A stretch of 64,000 bases of DNA. It comes from a virus. Its lineage: Duplodnaviria > Caudoviricetes. The translations under genes and the position numbers were made by a program. The stretch is taken from the IMG/VR virus record IMGVR_UViG_3300033074_001484, positions 32,001 through 96,000 of that record. The stretch is one strand, 5' to 3'. Positions 3,684-39,082 of the stretch are shown here, piece by piece. The notes beneath the pieces were generated by a model. It was not told the DNA's origin and made no database searches. It worked only from the letters and a program-made list of their open reading frames with translations. The first letter of the stretch is position 1. Each line of letters starts with the position of its first letter.

Positions 3684-4289
3684 TTAGGAAATAACATTTC
3701 GTTCAATAGTCAGGTTAGTGTCGGACACAACGATAATAAAGTCGTCATGCATAACAGCCAGCGGTAATTGTTTTTGCAACTCGTGTACGGCATCATGCGC
3801 AGTTTTCAACGCCATGTTTTTTTGTTTTTTTATGTCACTAAGTCGCTGCTCAAGTTCAATATATTCTTTACTGAGTTTTTCAATTTGAAATGCACATCTG
3901 GTGATCAATAATACACTTTCTGATTTGTTACGGTTTTTTGGGTCAATTACCTCTGTGAATGGTATTTCATTTGATTGTTCACAGAGTTCAAGTCCGTTAA
4001 TTTCTATATCGTATTCTCTTTGTAATTTTATAAGGACCCTGTCAAGGGCAGCATAATCGTAAGGTTCAAATTCAGGCCAACGGCCACTATATACCGGGTA
4101 CCCATACACTTCAACAAAAAAAGCTATTGGGTCAGTGATCCCTAAAGTTTTAAAGAAATCCTCCGGACCATTCTTCTGTGTGGAATTGCTGGTAATGGCT
4201 AAGTACATTGAATGTATTCTTGCCGACCACACTGTACCATCTGGGGTGCATATTGTAAAGGTTTTATCCTCTGTAAGTTTATATTTCAT
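3684..4289 (-). CDS. Hypothetical protein with C-terminal coiled coil
   Basis: Long ORF; likely start MKYKL at 4289. Confidence 0.55.
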   Translation of the reverse strand: MKYKLTEDKTFTICTPDGTVWSARIHSMYLAITSNSTQKNGPEDFFKTLGITDPIAFFVEVYGYPVYSGRWPEFEPYDYAALDRVLIKLQREYDIEINGLELCEQSNEIPFTEVIDPKNRNKSESVLLITRCAFQIEKLSKEYIELEQRLSDIKKQKNMALKTAHDAVHELQKQLPLAVMHDDFIIVVSDTNLTIERNVIS

Positions 4290-4370
4290 GTTTGTTAATT
4301 TAAGAGTTATTACGGTTGATTGTGCCAAACCCATTCAATCGCATAATGATTTATTACTGAATACATTATG

Positions 4371-4400
4371 CCTTGGTGTTATAGCGTAAACACTATGTTA
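4371..4400 (+). other. attI-like array head site, copy 1
   Basis: CCTTGGTGTTATAGCGTAAACACTATGTTA; part of a 70-nt repeat 68/70 identical to 15418-15487, with identity ending just after the GTT core. Confidence 0.7.
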
Positions 4401-4410
4401 GCGGTCAGTG

Positions 4411-4629
4411 CTACTTAGCGTGTAGCTTCATGGATTCGTCCAATTGCTTAACAGTCATGTGTCCACAGCCTTGATGGTAGCTATCAATCCACTGGTCGTT
4501 GTCAATATCAGAAGGGTGAACACCATATCTTATTACAATTTCGTTTTCCGCTAATTTTAGCAAGTCAAGATAGTTTCTATGTGCATCCGTAAGTGTATCA
4601 AGTATTTTTTGAAATTGTTTATCAGTCAT
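4411..4629 (-). CDS. Hypothetical cassette protein
   Basis: Fills unit 4397-4661; stop codon abuts the terminal IR. Confidence 0.65.
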   Translation of the reverse strand: MTDKQFQKILDTLTDAHRNYLDLLKLAENEIVIRYGVHPSDIDNDQWIDSYHQGCGHMTVKQLDESMKLHAK

Positions 4630-4755
4630 TTTATTTCAATTTACCGCACCGAACCGCTAACAAGGCATTTACGCTACCCGTGCGGACGATACGCTATTTA
4701 ACATTGGTTTTTCAATTACGGGGCAGCGTAAATGCCCCGTCCGTTGTGTGTAATA

Positions 4756-5184
4756 CTACGTTCGTCCATCAAACACCACCACCATACTATCGTGCATACC
4801 AGCATTGCCCGTAACAAATTCGCCCTTTGTATTTACACCGCAAAACTTTATTCTCTTTTCAATGAAGCGGATTTCTTTTTGGTTCGGCAATATATGTTTG
4901 TGGAATAATTGAGTGCTTGTGCTTACAGGTAAAAGCATCACACATAATTTACCTTTCTTGCTTTCCTCTATTGCCTTAATCACAAATGCATCTTTAAGTT
5001 TTCTACTGTAAGGTGGGTTAATAAAATTTCGCTCTTTCCATTCAATTTCAAGTCCATCCCATTTTTCAATATCGTGCTGATACGGGCAAGGATCAAAGTT
5101 AAAATCAAACTCTTTATTCAATTCATCATAAAAGTACAGTGGTGTCGCCCAGTCATTTTTATGTGGTATGTTTCTATTCTTCAT
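4756..5184 (-). CDS. Phage N6-adenine DNA methyltransferase (Dam-like), cassette-borne
   Basis: DWATP...FDPCP...FINPPYS motifs. Confidence 0.85.
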   Translation of the reverse strand: MKNRNIPHKNDWATPLYFYDELNKEFDFNFDPCPYQHDIEKWDGLEIEWKERNFINPPYSRKLKDAFVIKAIEESKKGKLCVMLLPVSTSTQLFHKHILPNQKEIRFIEKRIKFCGVNTKGEFVTGNAGMHDSMVVVFDGRT

Positions 5185-5310
5185 AATTTCTGTTTATTTG
5201 CCCGTACTACACACAACAATGTGTATAAGTAATGGCACGTTAAAGTTTGTGGCATAATTCAAAGGTTAGGTGTATGTGCCACTACTCATACACTCGGACG
5301 TTAGCAACAA

Positions 5311-5502
5311 TTACATGTAACCACCTTCATGTAATCGAATATAAGCCTCACAATCTGATAAACTACCTTGATACACTTCATTTTCTTCTACTGTGTTAGG
5401 TTCACTATCGTAAGCACTTGTTCGTTCTCCATATGTGGTTACAATTTCTATAACCTCATAAGTGTTGTCTTGAAAAAATCTAACTTTGTATTCTCGTTTC
5501 AT
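5311..5502 (-). CDS. Hypothetical cassette protein
   Basis: Fills unit 5300-5522. Confidence 0.65.
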   Translation of the reverse strand: MKREYKVRFFQDNTYEVIEIVTTYGERTSAYDSEPNTVEENEVYQGSLSDCEAYIRLHEGGYM

Positions 5503-5730
5503 AATAAGTAACTGTTGCTAACAAGGTATATATGCAATACCCTATTAATGTTATAATAAATTTAAAGTTTGTGCTTCGGGTACTGCATATATACCCGACC
5601 GTTAGTTGCAATTGCTACATTCATCTATCTAATCATCTTTTGTGGAAACATTTTTATTCTTTTTTTCCTCCCACACTGCAAATATACGATTTTTTTTTCT
5701 TTTTGTTACTATTTATATATAAAAAATATT

Positions 5731-6033
5731 ATGGCAACGAAAAAAATTACTTTGAATGAATTACGTAGCTTGGTTAAGCAGATTATTAAGGAAGAAACTG
5801 GGCAACATAGTGGCTTGAAATTAAAATATAAAAGACCTACTGACAAAGAAGAGGGTAATATAGCTATTTTCTTTAATGATGAAGAAATCGGATATATGAT
5901 GCCAGTTCGTTCTAAATTTGCAAAGATTGGTGATAATTATCATATCCAATTTTCTTATCAAGGAAAAAAGTATATTGAAAAATTTTCAAACAAACAAAAA
6001 GCCATTGAATATTTAAAATCAATAATTAACTAA
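5731..6033 (+). CDS. Putative capsid-packaged internal protein (MATKKITLNEL leader)
   Basis: Leader shared with 19161-19466; TATTTAT motif upstream; true start 5731 rather than 5569. Confidence 0.65.
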   Translation: MATKKITLNELRSLVKQIIKEETGQHSGLKLKYKRPTDKEEGNIAIFFNDEEIGYMMPVRSKFAKIGDNYHIQFSYQGKKYIEKFSNKQKAIEYLKSIIN

Positions 6034-6243
6034 AACCTTTTCATAAAAAGAATAAAAATGTATTAGTACTTCGATTGAAGTTCTACGGTAAATAATCCGC
6101 AACTGCAACTAACAGCGTGTATAAAACATTAAAACGATTTTATACACGCAAAACGTTATGTACAAGTGCTACATTGTGCTTCTAATTAAGTTTCGTGAAT
6201 AAAACAAAAAGAATTTTCCCAACGCACAACAAAGGTACTAATT

Positions 6244-6714
6244 CTATTTATCAAATCCAAATTTTCTATTGGGATTATTCCAAAGTGCTTCTGCTGATTT
6301 ACTATGTGGTGTATCAGGGTAAAGTTTTTCACCTGTTAATTTTTCAATCCATTCGTAAATATTAGATGCGATACGTGTTCTTCTTTTATCACTTCTAACA
6401 TCTATTGATGCTTTCATTAATGAATTTTGTTTTTTTTTACCATAGGTTGCATTACCTATTTCAGTTCCATCAGAATTATCAAAAACTATGATTTTTCCCC
6501 ATAAAAACCAATAATCGTTTTTAGGGATAATATTTAAATATGTGTTTCCACCAATCACAATCTTATCATTGTAATCACTATAATCATCAAGTTTTTTTAA
6601 ACTCTTAATATAATCCATTGAAACATCATCGTATGCTTCATTTATATTTCTTAATCTATTTTCATTCAAATATTCTCTTATTGTGGTTTTAATAAACTTT
6701 CTCAAATCTTTCAT
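6244..6714 (-). CDS. Putative GNAT-fold protein with head-targeting-like leader
   Basis: MKDLRKFIKTTIREYLNE leader; IDVRSDKRRTRIASNIY resembles GNAT motif A; paralogue of 23419-23778. Confidence 0.55.
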   Translation of the reverse strand: MKDLRKFIKTTIREYLNENRLRNINEAYDDVSMDYIKSLKKLDDYSDYNDKIVIGGNTYLNIIPKNDYWFLWGKIIVFDNSDGTEIGNATYGKKKQNSLMKASIDVRSDKRRTRIASNIYEWIEKLTGEKLYPDTPHSKSAEALWNNPNRKFGFDK

Positions 6715-6945
6715 TAGTTTCTTTTATATATAAATATTTGAATTTAAAATTCCCACCCGAAATTCTTTTTGTTTTTGTATGTGGTTCTAATTAAGTTTTG
6801 TTTGAACTTCACCGCACCTGTACATAACAAGGTGTATATGTAATGGTGGTTTTGTCAGTAATTTCAACATTAGTGCTTTCTTTATAGTTTTTTGGTTAAT
6901 CAAAGTTTCTCCTATCTAATCCACCACTACATATACACCCAACCG

Positions 6946-7290
6946 TTAGCGGTCATTGCCTGTGTACGGTACACTAATAAAGTGAAAGCATCCAGTTTTC
7001 AACTTATAACCAATATATGCCTCTTTACCAGTTGGTGATTCTTTACAATCTTTTATAGCAAATACCTCTAATGAATGAGCATCTTTTGGTAACGGCAACA
7101 CACCGCTAACATCGTGTATAGGTAATATTTTTGCTTCCTTCATTGCTTCGATAAACCTATCCTCCGTCATTGCTTGTATCACCTCACCTTCTGTGTAGCT
7201 TCCGTCATTCTCAAACCTTCCAGTATCTGCGTAGCAATTGGATAGGTTTTTAAACAATTGTCGTAACTCTAATTCATTCATTCTATTCAA
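6946..7290 (-). CDS. Hypothetical protein starting within an attC-like loop
   Basis: Crosses core at 7108-7110 as Val (HDV|SG); stop is the TAA of the GTTA core at 6945. Confidence 0.65.
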   Translation of the reverse strand: MNRMNELELRQLFKNLSNCYADTGRFENDGSYTEGEVIQAMTEDRFIEAMKEAKILPIHDVSGVLPLPKDAHSLEVFAIKDCKESPTGKEAYIGYKLKTGCFHFISVPYTGNDR

Positions 7291-8068
7291 TTTTTGTAGT
7301 TAACAATCACAAAAATACATACCCATACCTGCAAACCGTTATGGACAATACACTTTGAACCACCTATCAAGGTGCCCATTTTTAAAGTCATTAATAAATG
7401 TTTCTGTGTCTTTTCCAAGTTTTGAAGCCCAATATTCAGCGGGTGCATGGTTACCTTTCATGTTACTATTATAAGGTGTTATCCAATCCCTAATCACGAG
7501 TAAATGAGTACTACCCATAACATCGTGTATAGCACATTGCTGTTCTTTTTTCAATTTACTATTTTCCATATTTTTAACCCACCGACTATAATCCTTGAAC
7601 CAAAAGATATTACCTGACCATAGGAACGCCGTTAATCCAGCATACCAATCGGCATCTTGTTGCCACCATATCGTAATAATATGCCAACAAGCGATAATGA
7701 TTAATCCTTGAATTAAACAACGCTGTATGACAGCAATTACATTCAACTTAACCTGTATTGCCGGTAACGCGGGTTTCGTGTCAATGTTTTTTGATTTCAT
7801 TTCGTTTTCATTTTCGGACAGAGTACCTGTATTCATCAAATCAATCATTCATGGCACATGCAAAAGAAAATCTCCTGCTACATGGTTACCTACACAGTAT
7901 CCATTTGTTCTGTAGACCCCACCTGATTCATCAATGTAAGCATATTTCACAACCTTTTCATTGGTCACATCCCACCCCCTATTCTTATTATATGAAGCAC
8001 GTGCCATATCACCCGCTAATGGGGCATGATCTTGTTGGTTCTCAGAAGTTTGTTTCTCGTTACTCATA

Positions 8069-11000
8069 CTATTGAGCATTTAACCCTTCAGCAATTCCTG
8101 CGTTGTATCCTGCTGTAAAACCTCTATCAAAAGTATCGGAAGCACTCTCCCCAGAACAGTTTTTTACTTGTTGTTGTGTAAAATATTGGACCAATTCATC
8201 ATATTGAGATTTGTTTAATTTTATTCTTGTTATGGACATTTCGCCAAATTCAAAGATATGATTTCGTCCTTCTTTGTAATGTTTCATATTGTTTTAATAC
8301 ATTTAGATATTTCTTAACGATGCCCGTGTGTGGACTACTTATAATCAGTCCAGTATGCGTTTAACTGTTACCGGTATTTCATCAAATGGGCTTTCCCACT
8401 CAAAGTCGTCAGAATCTATGAATAGTACCACTTTCTTTTCGTGGTCAATTTTTAGTACTTTGGCAATACACTTTTCACCACCGGGACCTTCATCATATTT
8501 GACCTTTGCTCCGACGAATAATTTGTCTACGGTAATCATTGGTCATTTTTTTCAAGTTGTCTATCCAATCCGATCACAAGTGCAATTGCTGCCTCCTTGC
8601 TTAATTTAATAATTGTCTCCACAACCTTACCTTTACGAACATTGTGGATAGCCCTCGGTGTCAGGTCATCCGACAGTACCGTAAACTTTATAATGTAGTT
8701 ATCATCCTGCAAGGCAGCGACAACTACCCGCCCGTTCTCAAATTTGAACTTATCGCCATTTGTGTATTCAATGTGTGTTATTCGTTTATCGTTCATAACC
8801 CAGATTTAATTTGCTCCTGTATGCAGTGTATTAGTCACAAGAGCTAAATGCCTCGTGCAACTTTTGAACTTTAGCCTTGCAGTATGAAATTGCCAAGTGT
8901 GCTGCTTCTTCGGCTGTAACACATTGTAGCATTTTCTCTTTGATATTCAGGTCATGACAATTCATTATCCAAATATTTGGGTAATGTATATGCCCCATAA
9001 TTATTAATATCCTGCAATCTCCAATTTTTGTTTCAAAAGTCGTTGGCACTTTTTCGGCATCATATTTGGAATACGATGTCACGTCATTCCAAGTAATACC
9101 GGCAGTCACCGGTACCTTTGCAAATTCAAGACATGACTGTTTAATTTCAGGTTTTAGTTCTTCCCGCATTTTTGGTATCTTTTAATAATAAATTGCATTT
9201 TAACACATCATCGACCGTTCGTTCATCACCGTTTTCGGCGATGATTTTATCCAGTTGCCAATGGTTACCCCTGTTAATTGCCTCTGCTGTAAGCAGAAAA
9301 AACGCTTTAAGGAACCCGTTGCAATAAACTTCAAGTTGGAAGGTGTTCCCCATCCAACTTTTGAAGTGTCCAATGTATCGGTAGTGTTTCATTATGAGAA
9401 CCATTTGTCAATAGTTTTCCAGAAATATTTCTCACGCTTATCTGCCCATTCTTTGCTAAATAACATCTGTAGGGCTAAGAACCCGATGCAAATTGCAAGT
9501 AGGGCAATTATGGCAATGAGTATGAAGGTTATAAATAACCACATCAGTGCTTCTATGGCAAACTCTGGAGAAATGTTCCGGATACCGTTCCGGGAAAACA
9601 AATCATGAGTAATCCCAAACATCACCCATTTGTACAGTATGTAGCATGTCACAGCTACTGCTGCGGTATGCCTATCCTTCCAGTTAGTTTCCATTTTGAC
9701 GAAGATTACAATATTTGCAGTTGCCTTTGTGTGTCAGGTATCCTTTAGAATAATGGACATCCATATATAGATATTCACAACTGTCAACTACAATTACATC
9801 GAATTCTCCAATATCATGGTTGACAGTGGGATATTTTGAAGGTTGTTGGCAGGCATTTAGTAAAAATGCGAGGACTACAATTGTGTATTTCATGATTGTT
9901 TATTTTGCGAATGGATGACTGGTAATGGTTCTTCTTTGCCGGTAAATCGGTTAAACGTAACATTACAATCAGGGCATTTATAATACGATAGACCATCGTA
10001 TTCTCCGCGTATTTCAATACCAATACACCGGCTCCACCGATAAGGGGGCGAGTAAAGTTCTTGTACCCGCTCTTTTAACTGTTCATCCGACATGTTGGCA
10101 TATAATGGATTACCTCCATTTCTTAGCTGTATGAAGGATTCAAGAATGGACCCACCGTCCCAATTGGCGTTACATGCAGGGCAATGGGTGGCATTATCAA
10201 GCATCGTTGAAGGTTTTTTGGTTGTTATAAAAGTTTACCAGCACATCACGTCCTGAGTAATCTTGTCTACTACAAGCATCCTCCAACACATTGTCCGGAC
10301 ACGTTCTACACACATCCAATACAACCATCATGTCTTTGTGACATAGGTCGGAATATAGCACGTACAAGTTTGTACCACGTATGGTTGAACAGCTTAATAG
10401 TTTGTTATAAATGGCAAGTGTCCCGGCAGGGTTATACTGGGCAAAATTTCCCAGTTCCACTAAAAATATCATGGCACCGGGGTTTCCATTTGACCATTCA
10501 AATATCTCTCTCATTTTGATTCATATTACGTTCAACCAGTTTGATTGCGGTTGTTGTGAACCCATTTTCTAAAATGGTCACGTTGGCAACGTAAGACTGT
10601 TGTGGTTTTTGCCGTGGAATTGTAAATGTGGCTAACCACAAGAAATAATTCCAGCGAACAAACTTTACGTCACAGTTCACGTTATCAATGTTCACATTCA
10701 CGGTCGATGAACTTTTCATGCCCCGTTTTTTTTGATGTGAGGGTTGGCATCGAATGCAGGTTCGCGGTCGATGAATTTCCGTTGACATTCAGCACAGTAG
10801 CCGGATAACGTCTCATATTCGACAGTTTCCGCTTTGCTCGTCAAGTTCAAATCCGACGTTTTGCAAGCGACGCAAATTCGTTTAGCATGTGCCTCGCTCA
10901 AACTTATCCCGTGGATCAATTTTGAAAAGTGATCAACGAAATTCTTGTGATTGTTGTTCATACCATTCCATTAAGTTGTCCGCTTTACGTTTTTCACTTC

Positions 11001-11989
11001 CTGCTAAGGAAAGCAGGAACACAAACAGCAGCCCGATACATAATGCCCAGACCACTGCTGTATTGTTATTTTGTTTCATCCAAGGTAGGGTTGAAGAATT
11101 TTAACAATTCGTTGTACCTTTTCCATCGTTCATCGGTCGAGTTATCCGAATTTACAAAATCCGAATCACGGAATAGTACAATTCGGAGGTATTCAAATTC
11201 TTCCCACTTCTGGTTCAGGTCTTTTGCAAGTTCCCGCGCCTCAGCAACTCGACTAAGAACTTTTACAATTCCAGACCGGTGTGGTTTGTAGGGCATTTTG
11301 CTTTTGTCTAACACAAAAACCTGTGTACCCTTTTTTACAACTTCGTATCGCATGACTTTTGGTGTTTACATACATGGGACGTTCACATTAGTCGTTAACA
11401 ATTTCAGCATATACCGCCTCAATTTGTTCATGGGTGTGAACGCATTTTAAATTGTGGTTTTCCCAATTAATATGCGCATCATCAATTTTCCAGTCTGTTT
11501 GTTGTATGTCTTGTATTATGTGGGCACGAGCAATTTTAACAAAATTCTCATGTGCAGCTTCAACCGAAAGAGGACCTTTGCGGGTCATAAAATAAAGAGG
11601 ACCTTTGCGGGTATGATAGAAAACCCGCTTGCCACTTACCCCAAGGCACACGCCCTGACGTATAATATTTTTTATTCCTTGTAGTGGCATCATAGCTTGT
11701 TGCATATTCCCTGTAGTCCTCTCATCGCCCTGCGCATCAATTGAATTCGTTGATGCATACTTTCAATTTGCCCCAGTATTTCATTCTTATTGTAGGTTAC
11801 CCTGTAACCTTTGATACCGGCCACAATGGGAAGGTCTCCACGTGATCGCAGGGTATTCACAATATACCTGACCTCTGCTTCTGAAATTTGAATGCCTCGC
11901 GACTTCAAGCGTCGGCAAATTTCAGAATTTGTAATCGGTGTTCTGGTTCTCCGGGCTATTATGGCGCGGATTTGTTCTTCTGCTTTCAT
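8069..11989 (-). other. Run of about 15 short, tightly packed hypothetical phage genes
   Basis: Abutting or overlapping 64-112 aa ORFs on the - strand, including a lipoprotein-like 9684-9893, CxxC protein 9890-10204 and HTH-like 11690-11989. Confidence 0.6.
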
Positions 11990-11993
11990 TGTA

Positions 11994-12023
11994 CCTTGGT
12001 GTTATAGCGGTTATACAATGTTA
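11994..12023 (+). other. attI-like array head site, copy 2
   Basis: CCTTGGTGTTATAGCGGTTATACAATGTTA, 25/30 identical to copies 1 and 3. Confidence 0.65.
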
Positions 12024-12570
12024 GTAGCAAGTGCTACCTATCGTTTCTTAAATGGAATATCCTCTTGTGCTGCGACAAACATTAGAAACAATTCTCTTAC
12101 GTCAGTAGAATAAATATTTGTTGCAGGTATTGAATAAACACCATTACCTAAATAAGCCGCTTGTTTCTCAAATTTTGGAAAATATTTATTCTCCATTTCT
12201 TTTGTGATTTTCTTTTCTAATTCTTCCGTTAATGTCATTTTCGTTTAATTTACCGCACCAGCCACTAACAAAGGCTAAAAGCAATTGCCATCAAGCATAG
12301 TGCAAATTTTGAGCAGTATTTAAGGCAACTGCTCTTAGCCTCAACCATTAGGCGCAATGTTATGACAGTACCCATCTAAGTGTTTTAATATCGTTTTCAA
12401 TCTGCTCATATTGTTTACCCATATTAATACCAATAGGCGAATATATACCAACTTGCTTAATTTGTTCGGCAAGTTCTATGAGCATCGTTTCAAGTTTTTC
12501 GATTTGCTCTTGTATATCGTTATATGTTTTCATTCTTTAAAATTTTGTAAAAAGGCCAACCCCCCTAATG
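11994..12570 (+). mobile_element. Integron-like mini-array 2 (2 cassettes)
   Basis: Unit 12020-12269 (IR 12/15) holds ORF 12038-12238; hairpin 12267-12349 with core mutated to ATT; 57-aa ORF 12360-12533 (-). Confidence 0.7.
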
Positions 12571-12986
12571 AGAGGTTGAGCGGTCAGCATCAGTCACATT
12601 ACAGACTTCATATGACAAAGGTATGTGCATGGGGTTGACATGTGCAATACTTTTGACACATATTTTTTTAATGTATAATTGAAAAGTAGTTATAGCATTG
12701 ATATTCAATTGATTGTTAGACATTATACTGTAACCCTAAAAGATGTTCACGCTCCACAACCCGTGTGATTCGCTTCCCATTTTTAGTCCCTATGGCCCGA
12801 AAGCATAATGTTGACTTCCCTTTCACTAAAGTTTGAAATAATGTTTTGCCCCTGTTTATAGTGAAGCCAATATAATTTGGTGGAAAGTCCTCCTGACGTT
12901 CAAAGAACTTGGTGGAAGGTATCCACTCAACAAGCGTCATAGTCATGTGTTGGTCGGTTTTCTCACTATCTAACTATTTATGTGAA

Positions 12987-14177
12987 CTACCCATTTGCTA
13001 AAGACAAATGGGCTTCGGGCTTCACGGACGACTGCTGATTGCTCAGTCTAACATCATCTCCACCCGTGTAATCGCCAGTTCCTGACGATATTGTTTTTAA
13101 TCCTTCTTTCAGAATGTTCTTTGCAGCATTTAAATCACGGTCTAAAACGTGTCCGTTTTTGCAAGTCCATTCTCTTATTGAAAGATTTAAGTCTTGATTT
13201 ATCCAACCACACTCACAACAGGTTTTACTTGATGGGTAAAAGCGATTGATTTTTACAACTTGTTTATTGTTCCAATCCGCTTTGTACTCTAAAAACCTAA
13301 CAAACGTACCCCAACTTGCATCTGCTATATGCTTTGATAGATTACTATTACTCATCATTCCTTTAACATTAAGGTCTTCCAAAGCAATTATGTCATAGTC
13401 AGAAACAAGTTGGTGTGATACCTTGTGCAATACATCTTGTCTTGTGTTGGATATTTTCTCGTGTATCTTGGCAACCTTTCGTTTTTGTCTTTCAAACGAA
13501 CTACTACCTTTTTGTTTACGAGAAAGGTGTTTTTGTGCTTTCGCTAAATCTTTTTCATATTTCTTGGTATATCGGTTATTCTTGAATTTTATTCCATCAG
13601 AAGTAATCGCAAAATCTTTCAATCCTAAATCTACACCACAAACAGCACCAGTCTTTTCTTTTGGTTGGTATTGTTCTTCGGTTAAAATTGATACATAATA
13701 TCTTCCAGTTGGTGTTTTGGAGAAAGTCATTTTACCAACTTCACCCTTTACTTCACGGTGAACAATGCACTTAATTCCTTCTTTGAATTTAGGTACGTGA
13801 ATCTTACCATTAATCAGCTTCGTGTGTTGTGGCACAGTAAAACTATTCTTTCGTTTCCTTGACTTAAATCTTGGGAACTTAGCGTTACCACGAAAGAAAT
13901 TAAGGTATGCGGTATCTAATGACCTCAAAGCAAACTGCAAGGTTTGACTATTTACTTCTTTGAGCCAAACAGTTTCTTCTTGCTTTTTTAATTCGGTTAA
14001 GGTCTTTGCTTGTGCGTAGTAGTTATCAGACTTTTTGTTCGCCTGATATTGTTCTTTACGCTCATTCAAAAAGTGATTATACACGAACCTAACACACCCA
14101 AAATGCTTATCCAACAACACTTTTTGCCCCTGTGTTGGTCTTAATTCAAAGCGATATGTCCTATGTATTGTTTTCAC
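12987..14177 (-). CDS. tnpB: RNA-guided endonuclease TnpB
   Basis: HTH N-terminus, RuvC GVDLG / IALEDL / DRDLNAA, Zn ribbon SKTCCECG. Confidence 0.95.
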   Translation of the reverse strand: MKTIHRTYRFELRPTQGQKVLLDKHFGCVRFVYNHFLNERKEQYQANKKSDNYYAQAKTLTELKKQEETVWLKEVNSQTLQFALRSLDTAYLNFFRGNAKFPRFKSRKRKNSFTVPQHTKLINGKIHVPKFKEGIKCIVHREVKGEVGKMTFSKTPTGRYYVSILTEEQYQPKEKTGAVCGVDLGLKDFAITSDGIKFKNNRYTKKYEKDLAKAQKHLSRKQKGSSSFERQKRKVAKIHEKISNTRQDVLHKVSHQLVSDYDIIALEDLNVKGMMSNSNLSKHIADASWGTFVRFLEYKADWNNKQVVKINRFYPSSKTCCECGWINQDLNLSIREWTCKNGHVLDRDLNAAKNILKEGLKTISSGTGDYTGGDDVRLSNQQSSVKPEAHLSLANG

Positions 14178-14268
14178 GTTTACAAATATACTCCTTTTAT
14201 ACTAAATACGCAAGTTTTTGTAAAAGTTCCGTTTTAGGGTAAAAACTTTCACAAAAACTTGCTTTATT

Positions 14269-14682
14269 ATGTCTAAAAAATCACAGTACATTTCTACAAA
14301 TCGTTCAAAGCACTACCTAAAGTGTCATCTTATCTTTGTTTGCAAGTACCGTAAAAAGTTGCTTGTTGGTCAGTTAAAAGAAGATATGCGTTCTATTCTT
14401 TTAAATATCACTTCTAATTCAGATTTTGAAATAGAGGTATTTGAAAGTGACCTTGACCATATTCATTTTCTTATTCGTTACATCCCTCGTTTATCCATCA
14501 CATCTATCGTTCGCAAGTTAAAGCAAGAGTCCACTTACCACATTTGGCACTCTCCACACCGTTCATTCCTATTCAAGCATTTTTGGCGTGAGCGTACTTT
14601 TTGGTCAGATGGTTACTTCGTTTGCTCTATTGGTGAGGCTTCACCAGATACTATTCGTCAATACATCCTCACACAGGGTTAG
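14269..14682 (+). CDS. tnpA: IS200/IS605 HUH (Y1) transposase
   Basis: HLIFVCKYR, DHIHFL (HUH), FWSDGYF, YILTQ. Confidence 0.95.
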   Translation: MSKKSQYISTNRSKHYLKCHLIFVCKYRKKLLVGQLKEDMRSILLNITSNSDFEIEVFESDLDHIHFLIRYIPRLSITSIVRKLKQESTYHIWHSPHRSFLFKHFWRERTFWSDGYFVCSIGEASPDTIRQYILTQG

Positions 14683-14733
14683 CGTTTGTCGCTTACATCC
14701 CATTGGCTGAAGACCAATGGGTTTTACGCTCCG

Positions 14734-14925
14734 TTATATAAAAGTCAATCTACTGGGCTGCACGTATACTGTATGCAGGTATGGTATTCTGAAATGTATT
14801 CCCGGTTTTAATAGTTTTACATCCTTACCCAACCATATTCTCATGCCTTGTTGCCACGGCAGTACTATTACCCACCACTTCAGCATGCTGGATAATTGTT
14901 CCCATATCTGTTTGAATATTTCCAT
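14734..14925 (-). pseudogene. Truncated SPFH/band-7 domain gene at the IS end
   Basis: VIVLPWQQGMRIWLGK...LKPGIHFRIPY is an SPFH N-terminus; ends at the IS boundary. Confidence 0.65.
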
Positions 14926-15228
14926 TATAGTTTATTTATTTCATCCATTTGTTATCACATGCACCCCCATTTTGGAAAGGGTTTGTCACCCCGGAGCACT
15001 TCTCTTTCAATAGCATCATTTTTCATTAAAGGAAATTCGTCATTCTTATTGGCCGGTACATGATTCTGACAGAGTTTCCAAAATCCCCGTTCGGACCAAT
15101 ATATACCTCCGCAGCAAGATATTTGCGTACAACCAACCACATCACAACTTCCTAAAATTTCGTGTTTATCTTCCATATAGATTGTAGTTTTATACAGATT
15201 ATATATAGTGTCAATTGTCTTCAACAGT

Positions 15229-15453
15229 TTAAAAGGGAAACGTTTCTTTTGAAATTCGTTGAAGTTTGACCCGAAGCGATTTTAATGAATAGAACTTTTT
15301 ACCAATCCAATATCCAACAGACCTATTGTTAATCGTTCTTTTCAAAATCCTTCCTGTCCGGATATTAATAACTTTTCCACATGAAGTTACTCTGTATTGT
15401 GCATAACCTACGATTATCCATTCAATCGCATAATGGTTTATTATTGAATACAT
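15229..15453 (-). CDS. NUMOD4-like small protein
   Basis: GYAQYRVTSCGKVINIRTGRILK motif. Confidence 0.55.
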   Translation of the reverse strand: MYSIINHYAIEWIIVGYAQYRVTSCGKVINIRTGRILKRTINNRSVGYWIGKKFYSLKSLRVKLQRISKETFPF

Positions 15454-15457
15454 TATG

Positions 15458-15487
15458 CCTTGGTGTTATAGCGTAAACACTATGTTA
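15458..15487 (+). other. attI-like array head site, copy 3
   Basis: Identical to 4371-4400. Confidence 0.7.
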
Positions 15488-15538
15488 TGCACAATGCGAT
15501 TTGACCACTCCGTCTAAAAATAACCCAAAGTAATTTTG

Positions 15539-15546
15539 TACATTTG
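15539..15546 (+). promoter_or_regulatory. Bacteroidota-type -7 promoter element of the R-M cassette
   Basis: TACATTTG matches TAnnTTTG, 30 nt upstream of the MTase start. Confidence 0.55.
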
Positions 15547-15576
15547 TAGTTGTGAATTGAATTAACGAAAAGGAAA

Positions 15577-16866
15577 ATGATGAATAAAACTAAACATACA
15601 ATTATAAATGGTGACAGCAGACAAATGAGCGAGCTTAAAGATGAAAGTGTTCATTTGATTGCAACTTCACCACCTTATTGGCAATTAAAAGACTACGGAA
15701 CGGAAAACCAAATTGGATTTCACGATGATTATGAAACTTACATTAATCACCTGAATTTGACTTGGCAAGAATGCTTCCGTGTTTTACATAAAGGCTGTCG
15801 TCTTTGTATTAATATTGGAGACCAATTTGCTCGTTCAACTTATTACGGTCGTTATAAAATCATTCCTATTCATACGGAAATTATTAAGTTTTGCGAAATG
15901 ATTGGCTTTGATTTTATGGGGCAAATTATTTGGCAAAAACAAACTACCATGAACACTTCGGGAGGCGCAAGTATTATGGGAAGCTACCCGAATCCAAGAA
16001 ATGGAATTGTGAAATTGGATTTTGAATATATTTTATTGTTCAAAAAACAAGGAAATGCACCCAAGCCGACTAAAGAACAAAAAGAAAACGCTTCAATGAC
16101 CAATGAAGAATGGAATACCTATTTTAATGGACATTGGTATTTTTCAGGAGCAAGACAAGATAAACATTTGGCAATGTTTCCTGAAGAATTGCCACACCGT
16201 TTAATCAAAATGTTTTCATTTCCAGGTGAAACGGTTTTAGACCCTTTTATGGGAAGTGGAACAACTGCTTTGGCTGCAAGAAACTTAAATAGAAATTCTG
16301 TTGGTTATGAAATTAACCCTGATTTTATTCCAATCATCAAAGAAAAAATCGGAATAGATGATGCTTTTACAAAAGTTGAAACCGAAATTATCAAACAACC
16401 AGAATTAAAAACGAATTTTGAAAAACGAATCAAACAATTGCCCTATCAATTTATTGACACGCATAAATTGGACAAGAAAATTGATGTAAAGAAAATTCAA
16501 TATGGTTCTAAAATCGATGCCAAGAGCACTGGAAAACGAGAAGAATTTTTTTCTGTAAAAGAAGTCATTAGCCCAGAACTTATCCGTTTGAATAACGACT
16601 TGGTAATTCGCTTGATTGGTATTAAGCAAAACCCTACAATTAACGGAAAGGCAACCGAATATTTAATCAATAAAGTTCGTGGCAAAAAAGTGTTTTTAAA
16701 GTACGATAAAGTAAAACACGATAAAGAAAACAATTTAATGGCTTATCTCTATCTCGAAAATAAAACTTTTATAAATGCTCATTTACTAAAAGAAAATTTA
16801 GCATTGGTAGATAATTCCATTGACTTTAAATACAAAACGAAATTTAACACATTTATCAATGGCTAA
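15577..16866 (+). CDS. N4/N6 DNA methyltransferase (beta class) with C-terminal SNase-like domain
   Basis: TSPPY and DPFMGSGTT motifs; IRLIGI...MAYLYL...FINAHLL tail. Confidence 0.9.
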   Translation: MMNKTKHTIINGDSRQMSELKDESVHLIATSPPYWQLKDYGTENQIGFHDDYETYINHLNLTWQECFRVLHKGCRLCINIGDQFARSTYYGRYKIIPIHTEIIKFCEMIGFDFMGQIIWQKQTTMNTSGGASIMGSYPNPRNGIVKLDFEYILLFKKQGNAPKPTKEQKENASMTNEEWNTYFNGHWYFSGARQDKHLAMFPEELPHRLIKMFSFPGETVLDPFMGSGTTALAARNLNRNSVGYEINPDFIPIIKEKIGIDDAFTKVETEIIKQPELKTNFEKRIKQLPYQFIDTHKLDKKIDVKKIQYGSKIDAKSTGKREEFFSVKEVISPELIRLNNDLVIRLIGIKQNPTINGKATEYLINKVRGKKVFLKYDKVKHDKENNLMAYLYLENKTFINAHLLKENLALVDNSIDFKYKTKFNTFING

Positions 16867-17560
16867 AGATTATTGTACAAAAACAGAAGGAGAAGGCTTC
16901 AAATTTAAACACGAAACTCTTTTAAATTATGCCTTAAACCGTTGGGGACTGAACAAAGCGTATAGTGTAGGAGCATTAGCCGAATTAATTCGGGATTGTG
17001 CCCCTAATGATTACAAAGAATGGGAAGAATATTATTTCACAAAAGGGAAACAAAAGAAGAAAAACGGAATAAATATTACTCGTGAGTATATAACTTCTTT
17101 AGGTCAAACGCTATACATTAAACTATCTGAAGTTGTTCAAAGCGAATTAGCTTCTATTACAGAAGAAGAATGTATAGACTATGCATATAATTTAGTTCTT
17201 CGTAGAACTTATGACGGTTATAGGACTGAAATCGAAACAATCTACGGACAATTGGAAGGTGCAATTGGAATGAAGATTGAGCCAGCACCTGATAATTGGG
17301 ACAGAGCATATAGTGTTGATTTTTTCGTTCAAGTTGGAGAAAAATATATCGGTATTCAGATTAAACCAATTGAATCCGGACAAGCCTTGAACCAATATCA
17401 ATGGATTGAAATGCACAAGGTAAATCACGAAAATTTCGAGAAGAAATTCGGAGGAAAAGTGTTTTTTGTTTACTCTACCAAAGTTGGAGGGAAAAAGAAA
17501 ATTTACAATGTCGAAGTTATTGAACAAATAATATCAGAAATAGAACGATTGAAAAAATAA
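16859..17560 (+). CDS. Type II restriction endonuclease, MjaI-like
   Basis: Coupled to the MTase; VGALAELIR..EWEEYY, VDFF..GIQIKP (PD-(D/E)xK-like). Confidence 0.75.
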   Translation: MAKDYCTKTEGEGFKFKHETLLNYALNRWGLNKAYSVGALAELIRDCAPNDYKEWEEYYFTKGKQKKKNGINITREYITSLGQTLYIKLSEVVQSELASITEEECIDYAYNLVLRRTYDGYRTEIETIYGQLEGAIGMKIEPAPDNWDRAYSVDFFVQVGEKYIGIQIKPIESGQALNQYQWIEMHKVNHENFEKKFGGKVFFVYSTKVGGKKKIYNVEVIEQIISEIERLKK

Positions 17561-17753
17561 CGCACTGTGCATAACATCGGTTTTGCAAAAGAGCGGGTTA
17601 AGTACAAAATTCAACGTCAGTAATCCTATCACCGCATAAGCCATTTTTATTTCCTTTTTTGTAATTTAGCAAATAGAAAATGGCTTATGCTACGGTTGTG
17701 CTAAACTGAACTTTTGTGCTTCTATTTCCGCTCCTTCGCAAAGCCGTTTCCCG

Positions 17754-18002
17754 TTAGCATACATTTTCGGAAAGTATGCCGTCCTTAATCAATCCTATCA
17801 TTCTATCGTAGTTCCACATATAAGGCGAATATTCATCTCCTTTTATATAAAGCACCGAGTTTTTAATAGTGTAATCCTTTGTAAAATACAATTCAGGTAT
17901 TCGCCTTTTATCGTACTGTCTGCGAGAAAAACGTATGCTAACACCAAGTATAGCACATTGCTTTATCTCTTTTCTGCGAAGTATTTTAGTAATCCAATTC
18001 AT
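17754..18002 (-). CDS. Hypothetical protein starting within an attC-like loop
   Basis: Crosses core as LGV|SI. Confidence 0.6.
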   Translation of the reverse strand: MNWITKILRRKEIKQCAILGVSIRFSRRQYDKRRIPELYFTKDYTIKNSVLYIKGDEYSPYMWNYDRMIGLIKDGILSENVC

Positions 18003-18064
18003 TTATCTATTTATTAAGTTTTGTGAATGCAACGTGCCATACTTGCGGCACGTTATGTGCCATT

Positions 18065-18601
18065 TTAAAGAGCGACACTACTCTCAACTTCATTTCCCCA
18101 AACATCCCACCCTTCGGGAACTTCACGAGCAAATAATTCTACCTTTGGTAAATCTCCTACAAGTCTAATTATTCTATCTCTTGTTTCTTGTGGCTTTTTA
18201 CTATGCTTGTCAATAGGGGCATAAATAACTGAATGAACACCCATATCTAATCTTTTTGGGTTGCCTTTTACAGCTAATAAGCATATTTCTGCATTACTCC
18301 TTGTCCATCTTCCCATTCCCCAAAATAAACTATCTGCTTTTTTGTTTTTCTTTACCCAAGTAAAAGCATTTGTTTTATATTGAAAACCCCAAGCATTTAT
18401 AACATCAAGAGCTTCTTGTAGCTTTGGAAAGGTAGCCCACATAAATAGTATGCAATCATCATCTGCTATTTCGTTTACAGGAAGGTTTTTTATATCCTCG
18501 ATATTCATTGTTCTGTAATGTCTTTCAGCACCTCCACGATGCAAACATTTGTCATCGTAACTCCAAGCAGGGTCTGCATAAATTATTTTATATCTCTTCA
18601 T
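18065..18601 (-). CDS. MT-A70 family adenine methyltransferase, cassette-borne
   Basis: IIYADPAW, LFMWAT, HSKKP, VELFAR, GWDVWGNE. Confidence 0.9.
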   Translation of the reverse strand: MKRYKIIYADPAWSYDDKCLHRGGAERHYRTMNIEDIKNLPVNEIADDDCILFMWATFPKLQEALDVINAWGFQYKTNAFTWVKKNKKADSLFWGMGRWTRSNAEICLLAVKGNPKRLDMGVHSVIYAPIDKHSKKPQETRDRIIRLVGDLPKVELFAREVPEGWDVWGNEVESSVAL

Positions 18602-18733
18602 CTTTCTAAATTAAATTCGTGAATAAAAACGGCACATAACAAGGGCTTTGCGTAATAGCCCTATCAAGTGTCGTGGTTTATTTTAAGTTTCTACTAAGGG
18701 CTACTACGCAAAGCCCCAAAACGTTGTAGGCAA

Positions 18734-18979
18734 TTAGAAAGCTAATCCAGCACATTCTTCACAGCATGTATGTCCATCATTCTCTTTTGGTTTTCGGCAC
18801 ATCATACAAGTTAATCCGCTTTCTAACTGTTCGCTTCGCCCTACAACATCGTGTTTACGCAATTGCTTGGCTTCGTTTTCCAAGTCAATTATGTAATCTT
18901 CTAAATCACTTTCATATTGGATATGGTTAAAATTTCTCGTTCCTGTCCAATATTTATCATCTGTTCTTTTTGGTCTCAT
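18734..18979 (-). CDS. Cys-rich hypothetical protein starting within an attC-like loop
   Basis: HDV|VGRSEQL; CxxC...CxxC tail. Confidence 0.6.
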   Translation of the reverse strand: MRPKRTDDKYWTGTRNFNHIQYESDLEDYIIDLENEAKQLRKHDVVGRSEQLESGLTCMMCRKPKENDGHTCCEECAGLAF

Positions 18980-19160
18980 TTTCTAATGTAATTTATTGTT
19001 AATAATTCGCAACTGCGTAAACACGCAAAACGTTAGTTGCAATTGCTACATTCATCTATCTAATCATCTTTTGTGGAAACATTTTTATTCTTTTTTCCTT
19101 CCACACTACAATTATACGATATTTTTCTGAATTTGTTAATATTTATATATAAAAAATATT

Positions 19161-19466
19161 ATGGCAACAAAGAAAATTACTCTTAATGAATTAAGAACAT
19201 TGGTAAAACAGATTGTTAAGGAAGAAACTGAATTTCAATTTAAACCAGCAATTTTTAACAATAAACCATCAATAACTGATGGGACGTATCATTACTATTT
19301 TGCTCCAGCACCTTGGGCATCAGACCACAGTGCTTTATATGTTTTTAATAAAACAAATAATTCTGTTGTTTCATATGATATTGTTAATGAATTTTCATCT
19401 ATAAAACAAGACCCAGAATTGTTAGCTGCTTATAAAGAATTGTCAAAACAATATAAAAATATATAA
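19161..19466 (+). CDS. Putative capsid-packaged internal protein (MATKKITLNEL leader)
   Basis: Leader and flanks shared with 5731-6033. Confidence 0.65.
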   Translation: MATKKITLNELRTLVKQIVKEETEFQFKPAIFNNKPSITDGTYHYYFAPAPWASDHSALYVFNKTNNSVVSYDIVNEFSSIKQDPELLAAYKELSKQYKNI

Positions 19467-19626
19467 TTCCACCACAAAAAAAAAATAAAAATGTATTAGT
19501 GCTTCGATTGAAAATCTGTGGTAAATAAACCGCAACAGCAACTAACACAGGGTATAAATAACCCTACGGGTCGCTATCGCTTATTCATACCCAAGTACGT
19601 TACCTGCAAGTGCTACGATAGTGCTA

Positions 19627-20394
19627 CTATTCAACATTTGTGGGAGAAAATTTAAAAAGTTTTTCGCCAACCCTTTCAATACATATTTTGTAGTTCACTT
19701 CATCATTCTCAATCATAATGTAATTTCTGTTAAGGTTTTTTGCCGCTAATCCAGTTGTTCCGCTCCCAGCACAGTTATCCAAAATAGTTTCGCCCTCGTT
19801 ACTATAAGTTGCTATTAGATATTCAATTAATGCTAATGGTTTTTGTGTTGGGTGCAAAGCTGATTTTTGTTTGTCAGTAGTAAATTTCAGTACACTTTTC
19901 GGGTATCGCTCAGTGCTGTTATAGGTTGTCAAGCCATGCTCTCCATAATTACTTGTTTTTTTACTGTTTCTTTTATGGGTTGCGGTACTTACCTTTCTTT
20001 CATGTCCTGTTGTTTTTTGAGGGTTATAAGTCGGTAACTTTTTATAAAAAACAAGTAAATCCTCGTGATTTCTAAGTGGCATCTTCTTTGCATTCAAGTG
20101 TCCTGTTGGCGTTGTCTTTTCCCAAATCAAATTATATCTGTGCATTTTTTCATTTGATAACATCAGCTTTGCTGAAAATTTATCCTGCCCAAACAAAACT
20201 ATTGCACCATTAGCTTTAATTATTCTTTCGTATTCGCTCCACAATTTATCTAAGTCAATAACACTATCCCATTTGTTTTTAGTCACACCATACGGCAAAT
20301 CGCAAAGAATCATATCAATGCTATTGTCATCAATCAACTTCATTACATCAAGGCAATCTCCAAAATATGTTCTATTCAACTCCATTTTTCTCAT
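19627..20394 (-). CDS. N6/N4 DNA methyltransferase (beta class), cassette-borne
   Basis: CDLPYG, HPTQKP, DNCAGSGTT. Confidence 0.9.
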   Translation of the reverse strand: MRKMELNRTYFGDCLDVMKLIDDNSIDMILCDLPYGVTKNKWDSVIDLDKLWSEYERIIKANGAIVLFGQDKFSAKLMLSNEKMHRYNLIWEKTTPTGHLNAKKMPLRNHEDLLVFYKKLPTYNPQKTTGHERKVSTATHKRNSKKTSNYGEHGLTTYNSTERYPKSVLKFTTDKQKSALHPTQKPLALIEYLIATYSNEGETILDNCAGSGTTGLAAKNLNRNYIMIENDEVNYKICIERVGEKLFKFSPTNVE

Positions 20395-20901
20395 TTTCTA
20401 AAAATTTTACATAATCAAGTAATTGCAAGTAAGCGTGAAACAATATAGCTTCTGCATCATTTTCAAATGTGTTTGGCTCAATATATTCTCCACTTTCAAT
20501 TACATTTATTGGTTTTTCCATCTCTAAAACCTTTTAAATTTTCTATTCGTTCGCAAATCAAAATCCTGCTAAATAAACCGCACCAGCAGGTAACAAGGTA
20601 TTTGCAAAATTGCCAATCAACATTTATGCTTAATTTGAAGTATCTGCAAGGGCAACTTCGCAAATACCCGACCGTTATGCGCTATGGGGCGAACCCGCAT
20701 TGGCAAACATTTTATTTGACAGTTCATTCTACTGTCGTCTGGTAAACTTTCGTACCATTTAACCGCTTCTATTTTAGTCATAATTTATTTTTTTAATAGG
20801 TAAAACAAAAATAATACATACACATAACAACAAATATAAGAAATAAATTTTGATTTATCTATTTTTTATAGATAAAATTTACTTCTCATATTTGTAAAAC
20901 G

Positions 20902-22518
20902 TTAGGCTTCATTGCCTTCCAGCACACCACAAACTCCCGACCAATTAACAAGCATTGAGCTACCATCTTTTTCATTGTAGTTGGTGAATGTTTTTACGCC
21001 ATATCCAGCATCTGAATGAAATGTATGTATCTCATATCTTCCATTCCTTCCACTTCTCCAAAGAAAAACGTCACCTCTTTCTAATTTATTTGTAGGTTTC
21101 AATGTCAACGGCAACGAACCGCTAACAGCAAATAAACGCAATATGCGTTCTGTTGCTTCATCTTCCAGTCTACCATCTATTTGGTAAACATCTATTAATA
21201 TTTCTTTTATCTTATCTCCCATACTGCGTTTATTTGCGAACCGTAGGCAATGCGTTTTACTTCGGCTCTCTTACAAACACCTGTTCTCCGCATTTGAAGC
21301 ATTTACCATTCCAATCAGTTGAGTGTAAAATGCACTGTTCGCTTTGCCCTACAACATTAAATAAACGCAATATGCGGTCATTTGCGGTTGTGCAAGCTAT
21401 TTTACCCATCTCAAGGTCTCTTAATATTTCCCAAAGTTTCTCTTCCATACTGCGTTTATTATTAGTCGTTGTAGGTAATTAGTTTGTGATAACTCTGTTC
21501 GGGTTATCTAAACACTCCTGACACCAATCACCTTGTTCTTCAACTAAATTATCTCCACAATACTCGCAAACTAACTGTTCGCTTCGCCCTACAACACACG
21601 ACTGACGCAATGCTGCATATTGATCCAAAAGATAAATTGTGTCGGCTTCTGCCCCACTATATTCAAGTTGTCCACGTTCAAGCATTTGCCCTACTTGTAT
21701 CAATTTCTGTATTATTACTGTTTCTTTCATATCAAAATTCGTTTAAATTATACACACTTCGCCAACCGCCCAAACGTTATGTGTTATTGTAACACCACTT
21801 CGTAGATTGGTCGAGTAATTTTGGAGACATCCCTTGAAAAAATTCGTTTCCATCTCTAAGTTCAATCATTAATTTGTGTTGGTGTAGATATGTTCTGGTC
21901 TCTAACATTTCTCCATCAACATCAATCTTGATATTTCTATATGGTTCTGGATATTCGTCAGAAAAACAACGCCACATAACACCGTGTATAGTGTATGGTT
22001 TAGTTTCTGTTTGTTTGTTACTTTCTCCCATTTAATTATGTTTTTACTTGTTTGATACTTTGGTGCTATTTATACGCCACGACACCAATCATGTGAAACG
22101 TTATCAGCCATTACGCAAAACGGTCTTTTAATACTTTATGAATATTGCCATCCGAAAAAAGGACATAATATGCTTTTAGTATTTCATCTCTTGTAACGGA
22201 TGTTGATTTGAAGTCATTAATCGTTACATCTTGTATTGGTATGCCCTTTTTACATTCAATTAAGTCATCTCGTTTAAGAGTGATGTAACGGCTGCTAACA
22301 TCGGCTATATTCAATGCCTTGGTTTCTACTTGTTTTGAAGATTCGTGTTCCAATTTATTAATATATTCCATAACTTTCACTACATTATCAACTTCACCTA
22401 TAATTCCACCGGTTGAACTTTCATATACATTGTCACTCCATTGTACATTATGTAAAGAACAAAAGTTTTTTACTTTATCCTTAAATTCATCTCTTATGTT
22501 TAATCCTTGTTGTATCAT
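20902..22518 (-). other. Five hypothetical cassette ORFs starting within attC-like hairpins
   Basis: 20902-21222, 21257-21448, 21479-21730, 21777-22031, 22111-22518; all cross the core as Val. Confidence 0.6.
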
Positions 22519-22564
22519 AATATTAAAGTTTACATTCGTCTATACTCAACTGTTACCTGCCATT

Positions 22565-28526: not shown

Positions 28527-28658
28527 CGTCGCTATAATGATAATGGTGATGTGTGGGTGAATTTATTTTAATTGACGGCCACCCATGAAACATAAAACCA
28601 AGTGCCAATATACTAGCGGGTAGCAAAAAAGTTTCCCAATTCATATTCAATTATTTTG

Positions 28659-28729
28659 CGCAGGTGAAAGGAATCGAACCCATATCTTTGGTTTTGGAGA
28701 CCAACATCTTACCGTTAGACGACACCTAC
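28659..28729 (-). tRNA. tRNA-Trp(CCA)
   Basis: Cloverleaf; loop CTCCAAA. Confidence 0.9.
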
Positions 28730-28731
28730 AA

Positions 28732-29343: not shown

Positions 29344-29727
29344 AATAATGATTATTTGGAGTACCAGACAATGTGAGTGAACCGGGATACAACATCATCC
29401 GGCAGTTTGATAGTGTCTTCCGATTTAATTCCCCCAACACGGCCATACATTATCTGACCATCAACGACCGATGTCGTTTCGATGCGGATATTACTTTCTT
29501 CGGAATTAGTGGCCAAATAACCATGACCATCATCAAAACCAATAAATCCTTGATTTACTGATGCAATAAAGTCAGATATTTTCATCATATCCAACTCAAC
29601 ACTTTCTATCTGGTCAATGGGAGATGTTTTGTATTCAAATGGTATCATGTCATTCCTCTTCTTTACTATAAATACCACTATCTTACGTTTCCCGTACAGT
29701 GAATTTAAAAATTTGAATATGTAATAG

Positions 29728-29886: not shown

Positions 29887-29949
29887 ATAAAAGAAAAAAA
29901 TGTGGGGGGAAATTCAATATCCTTCGGTCCCCCCCACTTGTGCCGTAAC

Positions 29950-31873: not shown

Positions 31874-32371
<498 letters not shown>

Positions 32372-36982: not shown

Positions 36983-36992
36983 TTAATAAATG

Positions 36993-39077: not shown

Positions 39078-39082
39078 AATAA

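Follow-up and report, generated by a model that had tools for sequence, protein, structure and literature searches.

Cassette arrays and their heads

The window analysed here is a 64-kb stretch of a large phage genome (IMG/VR record IMGVR_UViG_3300033074_001484), and all coordinates are window positions unless another source is named. It holds arrays of gene cassettes, three of which begin directly after a copy of the same 30-mer (plus strand, 4371-4400, 11994-12023 and 15458-15487; copies 1 to 3). This 30-mer marks the exact base where the cassette rows start, and is probably a docking site of an integron-like gene-swapping system. Every copy has the same layout: a 16-mer, eight variable bases resembling an L box, AT-GTTA, and then a distinct cassette of its own. 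The 16-mer (4371-4386) has exactly three plus-strand copies (starting at 4371, 11994 and 15458), a number of matches that none of 100 dinucleotide shuffles reached.

Copies 1 and 3 are identical over the 30-mer and agree at 68 of 70 nt (97% identity; 4331-4400 against 15418-15487). The identity stops past the A of GTTA, and to the right the three copies run into three distinct sequences, which after copy 3 is a restriction-modification cassette. Copy 2 has the 30-mer alone in common with the other two, as a perfect 16-mer and a perfect 6-mer enclose an 8-mer that differs at six of eight positions, and both flanks are unrelated. Both variants of the 8-mer fit the L-box range of the site family described below and the outer 16-mer is invariant, a pattern that, on sequence grounds, points to constraint. 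The first-pass annotation of this DNA had reported the three motif copies in front of first cassettes, the 68/70 match with unrelated first cassettes after GTT, and a fourth array headed by another small palindrome, and on all these points it was accurate. The head of array 4 (31148-31189, plus strand) consists of a short palindrome (31148-31179), a 6-nt spacer and GTTA at 31186; it lacks an R'' box and bears no relation to the 30-mer. A gene for a DUF7873 protein (30200-31018, minus strand), with no PDB or PHROG match, directly adjoins it.

All arrays headed by the 30-mer run on the plus strand. Array 1 (4398-7340) comprises at least six cassettes, with hairpin sites at 4659-4745, 5215-5302, 5520-5603, 6111-6157, 6826-6947 and about 7108-7340, and inverted repeats matching at 13-14 of 15 positions. 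Array 2 (12021-12540) has one or two cassettes, a hairpin site at 12267-12361 and, at 12556-12579 on the minus strand, a terminator-like hairpin. Array 3 (15485-22560) opens with a cassette at 15485-17753, coding for an N6/N4 methylase-nuclease fusion and an MjaI-type endonuclease, and continues with about 12 more. The cargo of the cassettes includes Dam, MT-A70 and N6/N4 methylases and the MjaI-type restriction pair.

The sites to the right of each 30-mer form one family of bulged hairpins: YAAC, a gap of 1-4 nt (most often 2), a 9-22-bp stem, a loop of approximately 10-150 nt, the return stem, 5-6 nt and GTTR, with the core pattern YAAC-A ... C-GTTR. Over more than ten successive pairs, the 15 nt that follow a GTT match the reverse complement of the 15 nt in front of the next AAC at 13-14 of 15 positions; read from sequence, such chained complementary ends are the footprint of cassettes that would be able to circularise and whose circle opens at GTT. 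The same end rule applies to the cassettes beside the 30-mers (14/15 at copy 3, about 12/15 by hand count at copy 2, and the first 9 nt at copy 1).

The 30-mer as an inverted, hairpin-less half-site

The array heads lack the fold of the other sites. None of the 46-nt stretches at the three heads folds better than its shuffles (z from -0.35 to +1.09), compared with z of -3.4 (plus strand) and -4.2 (minus strand) for a standard hairpin site. A 5-bp stem within copies 1 and 3 was considered and set aside, being no better than those in shuffles.

What the heads do possess is the sequence of half a site. We built a position weight matrix (PWM) from 28 left half-sites, all on the plus strand and with no 30-mer among them, and scored the 2,504 AAC positions of both strands. 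Copies 1 and 3 rank top among the minus-strand hits (20.4 and 18.1 bits, respectively, within the range of true sites) and copy 2 scores 10.4 bits; the 30-mers are the sole inverted left-half hits on the minus strand in the 64 kb. Moreover, AAC is followed by A in all 28 left halves and GTT is preceded by C in 23 of 25 right halves, and the heads carry AT before GTT, which is the left-half rule in reverse. Because of the PWM ranking and this AT, the 30-mer is, as far as its sequence tells, most aptly seen as the left (R''-L'') half of a hairpin site in inverted orientation; as a duplex, it offers the R and L boxes of a folded site in bulge-free form. In passing, 10 nt around the start of the 16-mer (4367-4380) recur just past the L'' arm of the hairpin site at 22297-22330; the head may derive from such a site, or the match may be due to chance.

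Folded strand and probable exchange point

Across 21 hairpin stems (4659-33941) we counted 302 Watson-Crick pairs, and the plus-strand mismatches comprised 22 A-C against 4 G-T, the A-C mismatches often at stem position 13. As A-C on one strand corresponds to a G-T wobble on the other, the stems are fully paired on the minus strand only, which makes the minus strand the folded one. This fixed, strand-specific feature could be a mark of the recombined strand.

In this region, most open reading frames (ORFs) are on the minus strand. Many of those in cassettes begin in a hairpin loop and cross the L'' and R'' boxes in frame, and several can be followed from the loop leftward through the R'' box. 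The loop-starting ORFs (6946-7290, 7339-7848, 17754-18002, 18734-18979, 21257-21730, 21777-22031 and 22111-22518, minus strand) share a recurrent (H/L)(D/G)V(V/S/M)G-like peptide; at ORF 7339-7848 the half-site is present and the return arm is absent. In a subfamily of short hairpins the loop and the left flank are held in common and the right flank is not. Members of this subfamily (6111-6157, 31486-31531, 32399-32443, and L025:30005-30059) have the same loop of about 10 nt, also seen in the published site P12002L_attC1, on stems that differ by compensating changes.

Hairpins are thus inherited with the cassette on their left. Between the Polaribacter phages P12002L and P12002S, in agreement, identity resumes at GTT and the hairpins to the left of it differ. 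It follows that exchange would take place at the right-hand GTT or a few bases ahead of it. On the folded minus strand, the exchange point would then fall in the 5' arm, by analogy with the bottom strand of integrons, and for head copy 1 we infer it to be 4397/4398.

The gene beside the heads

On the minus strand, a start codon lies 4 nt from the end of all three 30-mer copies. At copy 3 it opens an intact ORF of 74 aa (15229-15453), which starts inside the head unit and matches NUMOD4 weakly (E 7.9e-5, 23.3 bits against a cut-off of 23.4); its 5' end is the left flank common to copies 1 and 3. At copy 2 a 99-aa ORF (11690-11989) begins, and at copy 1 the neighbour is a relic of the NUMOD4-like gene of about 12-18 codons (4319-4370, by sequence comparison of copies 1 and 3). 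Overall, the proteins adjoining heads are the weak NUMOD4 match, a possible winged-helix protein, an uncharacterised protein and the DUF7873 protein. No nuclease domain was found by domain search in the 74-aa product, a search for homologues returned no longer ones, and ORF 3684-4334 has no protein similarity to it beyond the relic.

The NUMOD4-like ORF contains a 12-nt R''-like box (15400-15411) that pairs at 12 of 12 positions with 15484-15495, and the segment 15396-15499 folds at z -3.9. The corresponding box of the relic (4319-4330) aligns with it at 10 of 12 positions (by eye) once a gap of roughly 10 nt is introduced. As the first 12 codons remain and that gap shifts the frame, the earlier wording 'frameshifted relic' is a fair one. 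The box sits 70-85 nt upstream in copies 1 and 3 and is missing at copy 2; given its presence, copies 1 and 3 can be read as complete, if hairpin-poor, sites.

Natural variation in close relatives

Two contigs of other public sequencing runs, L022 (SRR23814904) and L021 (SRR23814902), are 100% and 99.7% identical, respectively, to 14738-15487 over 750 nt. Right after GTTA (past 15487), another R' box takes the place of the restriction-modification cassette in both of them. The first-pass annotation had named two findings that would speak against it, namely a motif that is common with no cassette downstream and homologues that always carry the same downstream gene. Neither was encountered: the relatives carry other sequence after copy 3, and three public collections contain no true copies. 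The 16-mer has 16 matches in IMG/VR, none with an 8-nt spacer and ATGTTA, and these are chance matches; the pattern of 20 specified bases occurs 0 times in JGI metagenome contigs and 0 times in 185,579 species genomes. Considering this absence of true copies elsewhere, a survey of the motif by sequence identity is not feasible, and host copies of the 30-mer, which the first-pass annotation had proposed to inspect for an adjoining integrase gene, did not turn up among the 185,579 species genomes.

Neither megablast of 4000-16000 nor blastn of 56000-63990 against 50,697 phage records recovered a relative, and related-locus searches, one from the 99-aa neighbour gene and one from the DUF7873 gene, returned nothing. 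Walking for further sequence of this genome yielded contigs of 1-6.5 kb only, and the first cassette protein of array 1 had no match among the recorded contigs. In metagenome contigs, missing cover and short-sided joints were not counted as evidence; a wastewater run (X1) with no cover at about 4834-8168, a match stop at 4386 (40 unlike letters) and a joint 18736-21572 (28-letter side) was accordingly not used. Contig breaks at 4387, 15458 and 15474 in source-like runs are the assembly-graph breaks expected at a repeat. In the source-like run X10, a contig at approximately six times the depth of this phage joins hairpin-site sequence of two arrays (6144/19598) with eight other letters between, which suggests that other phages with related cassettes were present in the same sample.

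Array heads in Polaribacter phages

Sites of the same family occur in the cultured Polaribacter phage P12002L, with YAAC...GTTR hairpins, chained complementary ends and the same strand bias. A 69-nt perfect repeat ending in GTTA heads two of its arrays (29172-29240 and 37198-37266 of P12002L), and the R' boxes that follow the two repeats differ. The repeat and the 30-mer have no sequence in common, and in IMG/VR the repeat is found only in P12002L itself. Compared with its relative P12002S, P12002L is 99.7% identical over 5,044 bp up to the GTT of the repeat; beyond that GTT, about 2.4 kb (P12002S) and about 1.9 kb (P12002L) of unrelated cassettes follow, and shared cassettes appear further on. 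One internal break point between the two phages lies within 5-7 nt before GTT.

Qi et al. 2023 (PMC9892861) used the 69-nt repeat as their oligonucleotide 'P12002L_attC2'; what they named 'attC1' corresponds to the first ordinary P12002L hairpin, on the other strand. In that work IntI1 recombined attC2, through its bottom strand, into attI1 to give G|TT junctions, attC1 and attC2 were noted to be 'divergent' in direction, the P12002L sites were called CALIN (clusters of attC sites lacking integron-integrases), and the head analogue was called an attC by HattCI/Infernal (PMC9892861). Our literature search found no paper describing a class of head sites.

Recombinase and fit to known systems

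Among the 113 ORFs of at least 55 aa in the window we found neither a tyrosine nor a serine recombinase (PF00589 and resolvase searches gave no match), and a search of P12002L likewise gave no PF00589 match; a small Xer-like recombinase beside an array is absent from both. An integrase to go with the site is therefore not encoded in the window, and no array there has the adjacent integrase of a complete integron. The attC part of integron anatomy is in place, with sites ordered R''-L''-loop-L'-R' with AAC/GTT cores and complementary cassette ends. Of attI-type features, the heads display the position at the array end, the lack of a fold and the GTT junction. The cassette ORFs are mostly on the minus strand, not co-oriented with a promoter at the attI end.

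A close counterpart of the head is the integron attI (e.g., attI1). Both are non-hairpin sites at the array end, in which a folded site is mimicked by an L box close to an R box that has GTT as its core; in both the junction with the first cassette lies at this core (G|TT in attI), and the first cassette varies between relatives. Unlike attI, the head has no adjacent integrase gene, occurs in three copies per genome, is unrelated in sequence to known attI, shows no identified DR1/DR2-type extra repeats and has cassette ORFs that mostly read towards it, with no Pc logic.

The phage attC/CALIN sites (PMC9892861) are alike in that the P12002L sites belong to the same family, that the attC2 recombined by IntI1 with attI1 is an array-head repeat, and that the 'divergent directions' match the inverted half-site geometry found here. 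The paper differs in treating attC2 as an ordinary attC, and it describes no head class, no repetition and no P12002L/P12002S break. As for attC sites in general, the hairpins of the window have spacers of 2 nt on one side and 5-6 nt on the other, and the canonical R-box consensus fails (GTTRRRY in 1 of 25, RYYYAAC in 0 of 28).

Two further systems bear some likeness. The dif/Xer sites, two arms around a central region of 6-8 bp, also have L and R arms with a short spacer, and a break point 5-7 nt before GTT fits exchanges flanking such a region; in contrast, the sites here are a folded single strand with 2-nt and 5-6-nt spacers, and the window has no Xer-like gene. PeSLs, the mobile regulatory cassettes of T4-type phages, are direct repeats of a promoter and a stem-loop that recombine by homology. 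They resemble the present arrays in that small hypervariable phage genes are flanked by stem-loops, and differ in that here every cassette has its own inverted ends, stems vary from site to site, breaks fall exactly at GTT and promoters are not enriched (54 Sigma-70-type matches in the window, 57.5 expected).

An attI-like reading and the points against it

Taking together the exact junction, the cassette differences at it and the published assay on P12002L, we favour, with moderate confidence, the interpretation that the 30-mer is a hairpin-less 'head' recombination site of an integron-like cassette system in Bacteroidota phages. That it would work as an array-head recombination site analogous to attI appears, to us, more probable than not. 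The first-pass annotation had gone further and called it the primary integration site. Its position at the array end, the exact GTT(A) junction and the varying cassette support an integration site; a 'primary' role is less certain, since internal sites exchange as well.

Several observations weigh against this interpretation. In the Polaribacter pair, internal hairpin sites are exchange points too, so that a 'primary' entry is not established. The published assay employed a foreign integrase and single-stranded delivery, and the junction of copy 3 is the only one that can be compared with relatives of this phage. Opposite to integron logic, most cassette ORFs read towards the head site. As neither the 113 window ORFs nor P12002L supplied a recombinase, activity in these phages is argued by analogy. 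Finally, the upstream R''-like box of copies 1 and 3 could make them atypical sites of the neighbour gene's own cassette, and the constant 4-nt gap to an ATG in all three copies would fit an expression signal too; these last two points underlie two rival explanations.

Alternative explanations

According to the first of them, the 30-mer is the right part of a degenerate ordinary cassette site that belongs to the neighbour gene (the NUMOD4-like gene being the last cassette), as recombinogenic as any other and with no special role in entry. The R''-like box 70-85 nt upstream of copies 1 and 3 (with 12/12 pairing and unit z of -3.9 at copy 3) is what such a site would need, the NUMOD4-like ORF begins within the unit and, like other cassette ORFs, runs across the box, and HattCI/Infernal called the P12002L analogue an attC. 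Yet copy 2 has the 30-mer beside an unrelated gene and without an R'' box, and to the left of the NUMOD4-like gene there is no GTT junction complementary to the box. Moreover, no L stem is present, the spacer follows the rule of an inverted left half, and only 4 nt of the 12/12 match are specific once the family consensus is removed. We regard this explanation as unlikely.

A second possibility, which we deem quite improbable, is that the 30-mer is an expression signal (a leader, ribosome-binding or processing element) of the minus-strand gene 4 nt away, and that the arrays merely fill intergenic space. Besides the constant gap, the strand that reads towards the ATG contains AAGG and the folded strand is the mRNA-sense one. 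Such a signal would be misplaced at copy 1, which precedes only the NUMOD4-like relic, and at head copy A of P12002L, after which no co-directional gene follows; nor does the tally of Sigma-70-type promoters (54 vs 57.5 expected) lend it weight. It also leaves unexplained why the 30-mer scores with the half-site PWM, why the 8-mer varies within the range of the family and why relatives break exactly at GTT.

The idea that the repeats are functionless, as neutral leftovers of a recent segmental duplication or scars of a homing-endonuclease gene (NUMOD4 is a DNA-binding module of homing endonucleases, and the 68/70 nt shared by copies 1 and 3 include part of the gene with the weak match), is very improbable, as the intact 16-mer and 6-mer of copy 2 around a divergent 8-mer and between unrelated flanks bespeak constraint and not decay, the three right-hand cassettes of three copies mean that the junction has recombined since duplication, and the 74-aa ORF lacks a nuclease domain.

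Other features of the window

An IS605-type insertion sequence (IS; 12725-14738) lies between arrays 2 and 3, outside the cassette system, with tnpB at 12987-14177 (minus strand) and tnpA at 14269-14679 (plus strand). It is absent at the matching place in L021 and L022. The element splits a gene, uninterrupted in these two contigs, for what by eye resembles an SPFH/band-7 protein; the part of the gene beyond the insertion point has no match anywhere in the window. Its TnpA is the only enzyme in the window that acts on hairpin DNA. We considered and rejected it as the cassette enzyme, for the end hairpins of the element (near 12990 and 14700) are unrelated to the cassette sites by eye, and the relatives that lack the IS still vary at the head.

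The phage genome codes in this window for 23 tRNA genes (28658-46026, minus strand) with small ORFs interleaved, and an Rfam search of the window returned tRNAs only. At 53466-55898 (minus strand), inside a block of sugar-modifying genes, lies a gene for an 810-aa family-2 glycosyltransferase with an apparent intein. A tblastn search with the DUF5662 cassette protein was uninformative, as it matched only phages of Bacillus, Lysinibacillus, Mammaliicoccus, Rhizobium and Microcoleus, and uncultured or unassigned phages.

Proposed mechanism and implications

We reason that the array heads would act as follows. As a duplex, the 30-mer would present an R box (GTTA and the bases of the cassette) and, 2 nt away, an L box, in the absence of the asymmetric bulge and of the fixed mismatch. 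A site-specific recombinase would pair the head with a free circular cassette whose minus strand is folded, and strand exchange at or just before GTT would place, or replace, a cassette directly beside the 30-mer. The enzyme, which is not encoded in the window, would by analogy be a tyrosine recombinase acting in trans, and could be supplied by the phage from elsewhere in its genome, by a co-infecting relative or by the host. Copying of the head within the genome, twice with the first 40 nt of the neighbour gene, would explain that three arrays start from it. The sequences directly display the anatomy, the exact junction and natural differences in the cassettes found there; we infer the enzyme, the direction of the event (insertion or replacement) and any preference for the head over internal sites.

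A bolder version of this proposal, which we put forward only tentatively and hold to be less probable than the head-site role itself, is that the head is a portable, self-sufficient docking module (a 'free-standing attI') that can be copied to new places and seed arrays there, served by a recombinase in trans. By definition, an integron has an integrase and, next to it, a single attI. In contrast, the present genome has several arrays that share the same hairpin-less 30-mer as their head, none with a linked integrase. If the 'free-standing attI' holds true, virulent phages would run multi-array platforms for gene capture without a linked integrase.

The head-site interpretation offers a testable answer to how genes are gained or swapped in the integrase-less attC clusters of virulent phages, and it recasts the published assay, in that the active attC2 of P12002L is an array head. 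A sequence this short would be usable to follow or to engineer gene capture in phages, and the methylases and restriction-modification genes carried by the cassettes could bear on the escape of these phages from host restriction.

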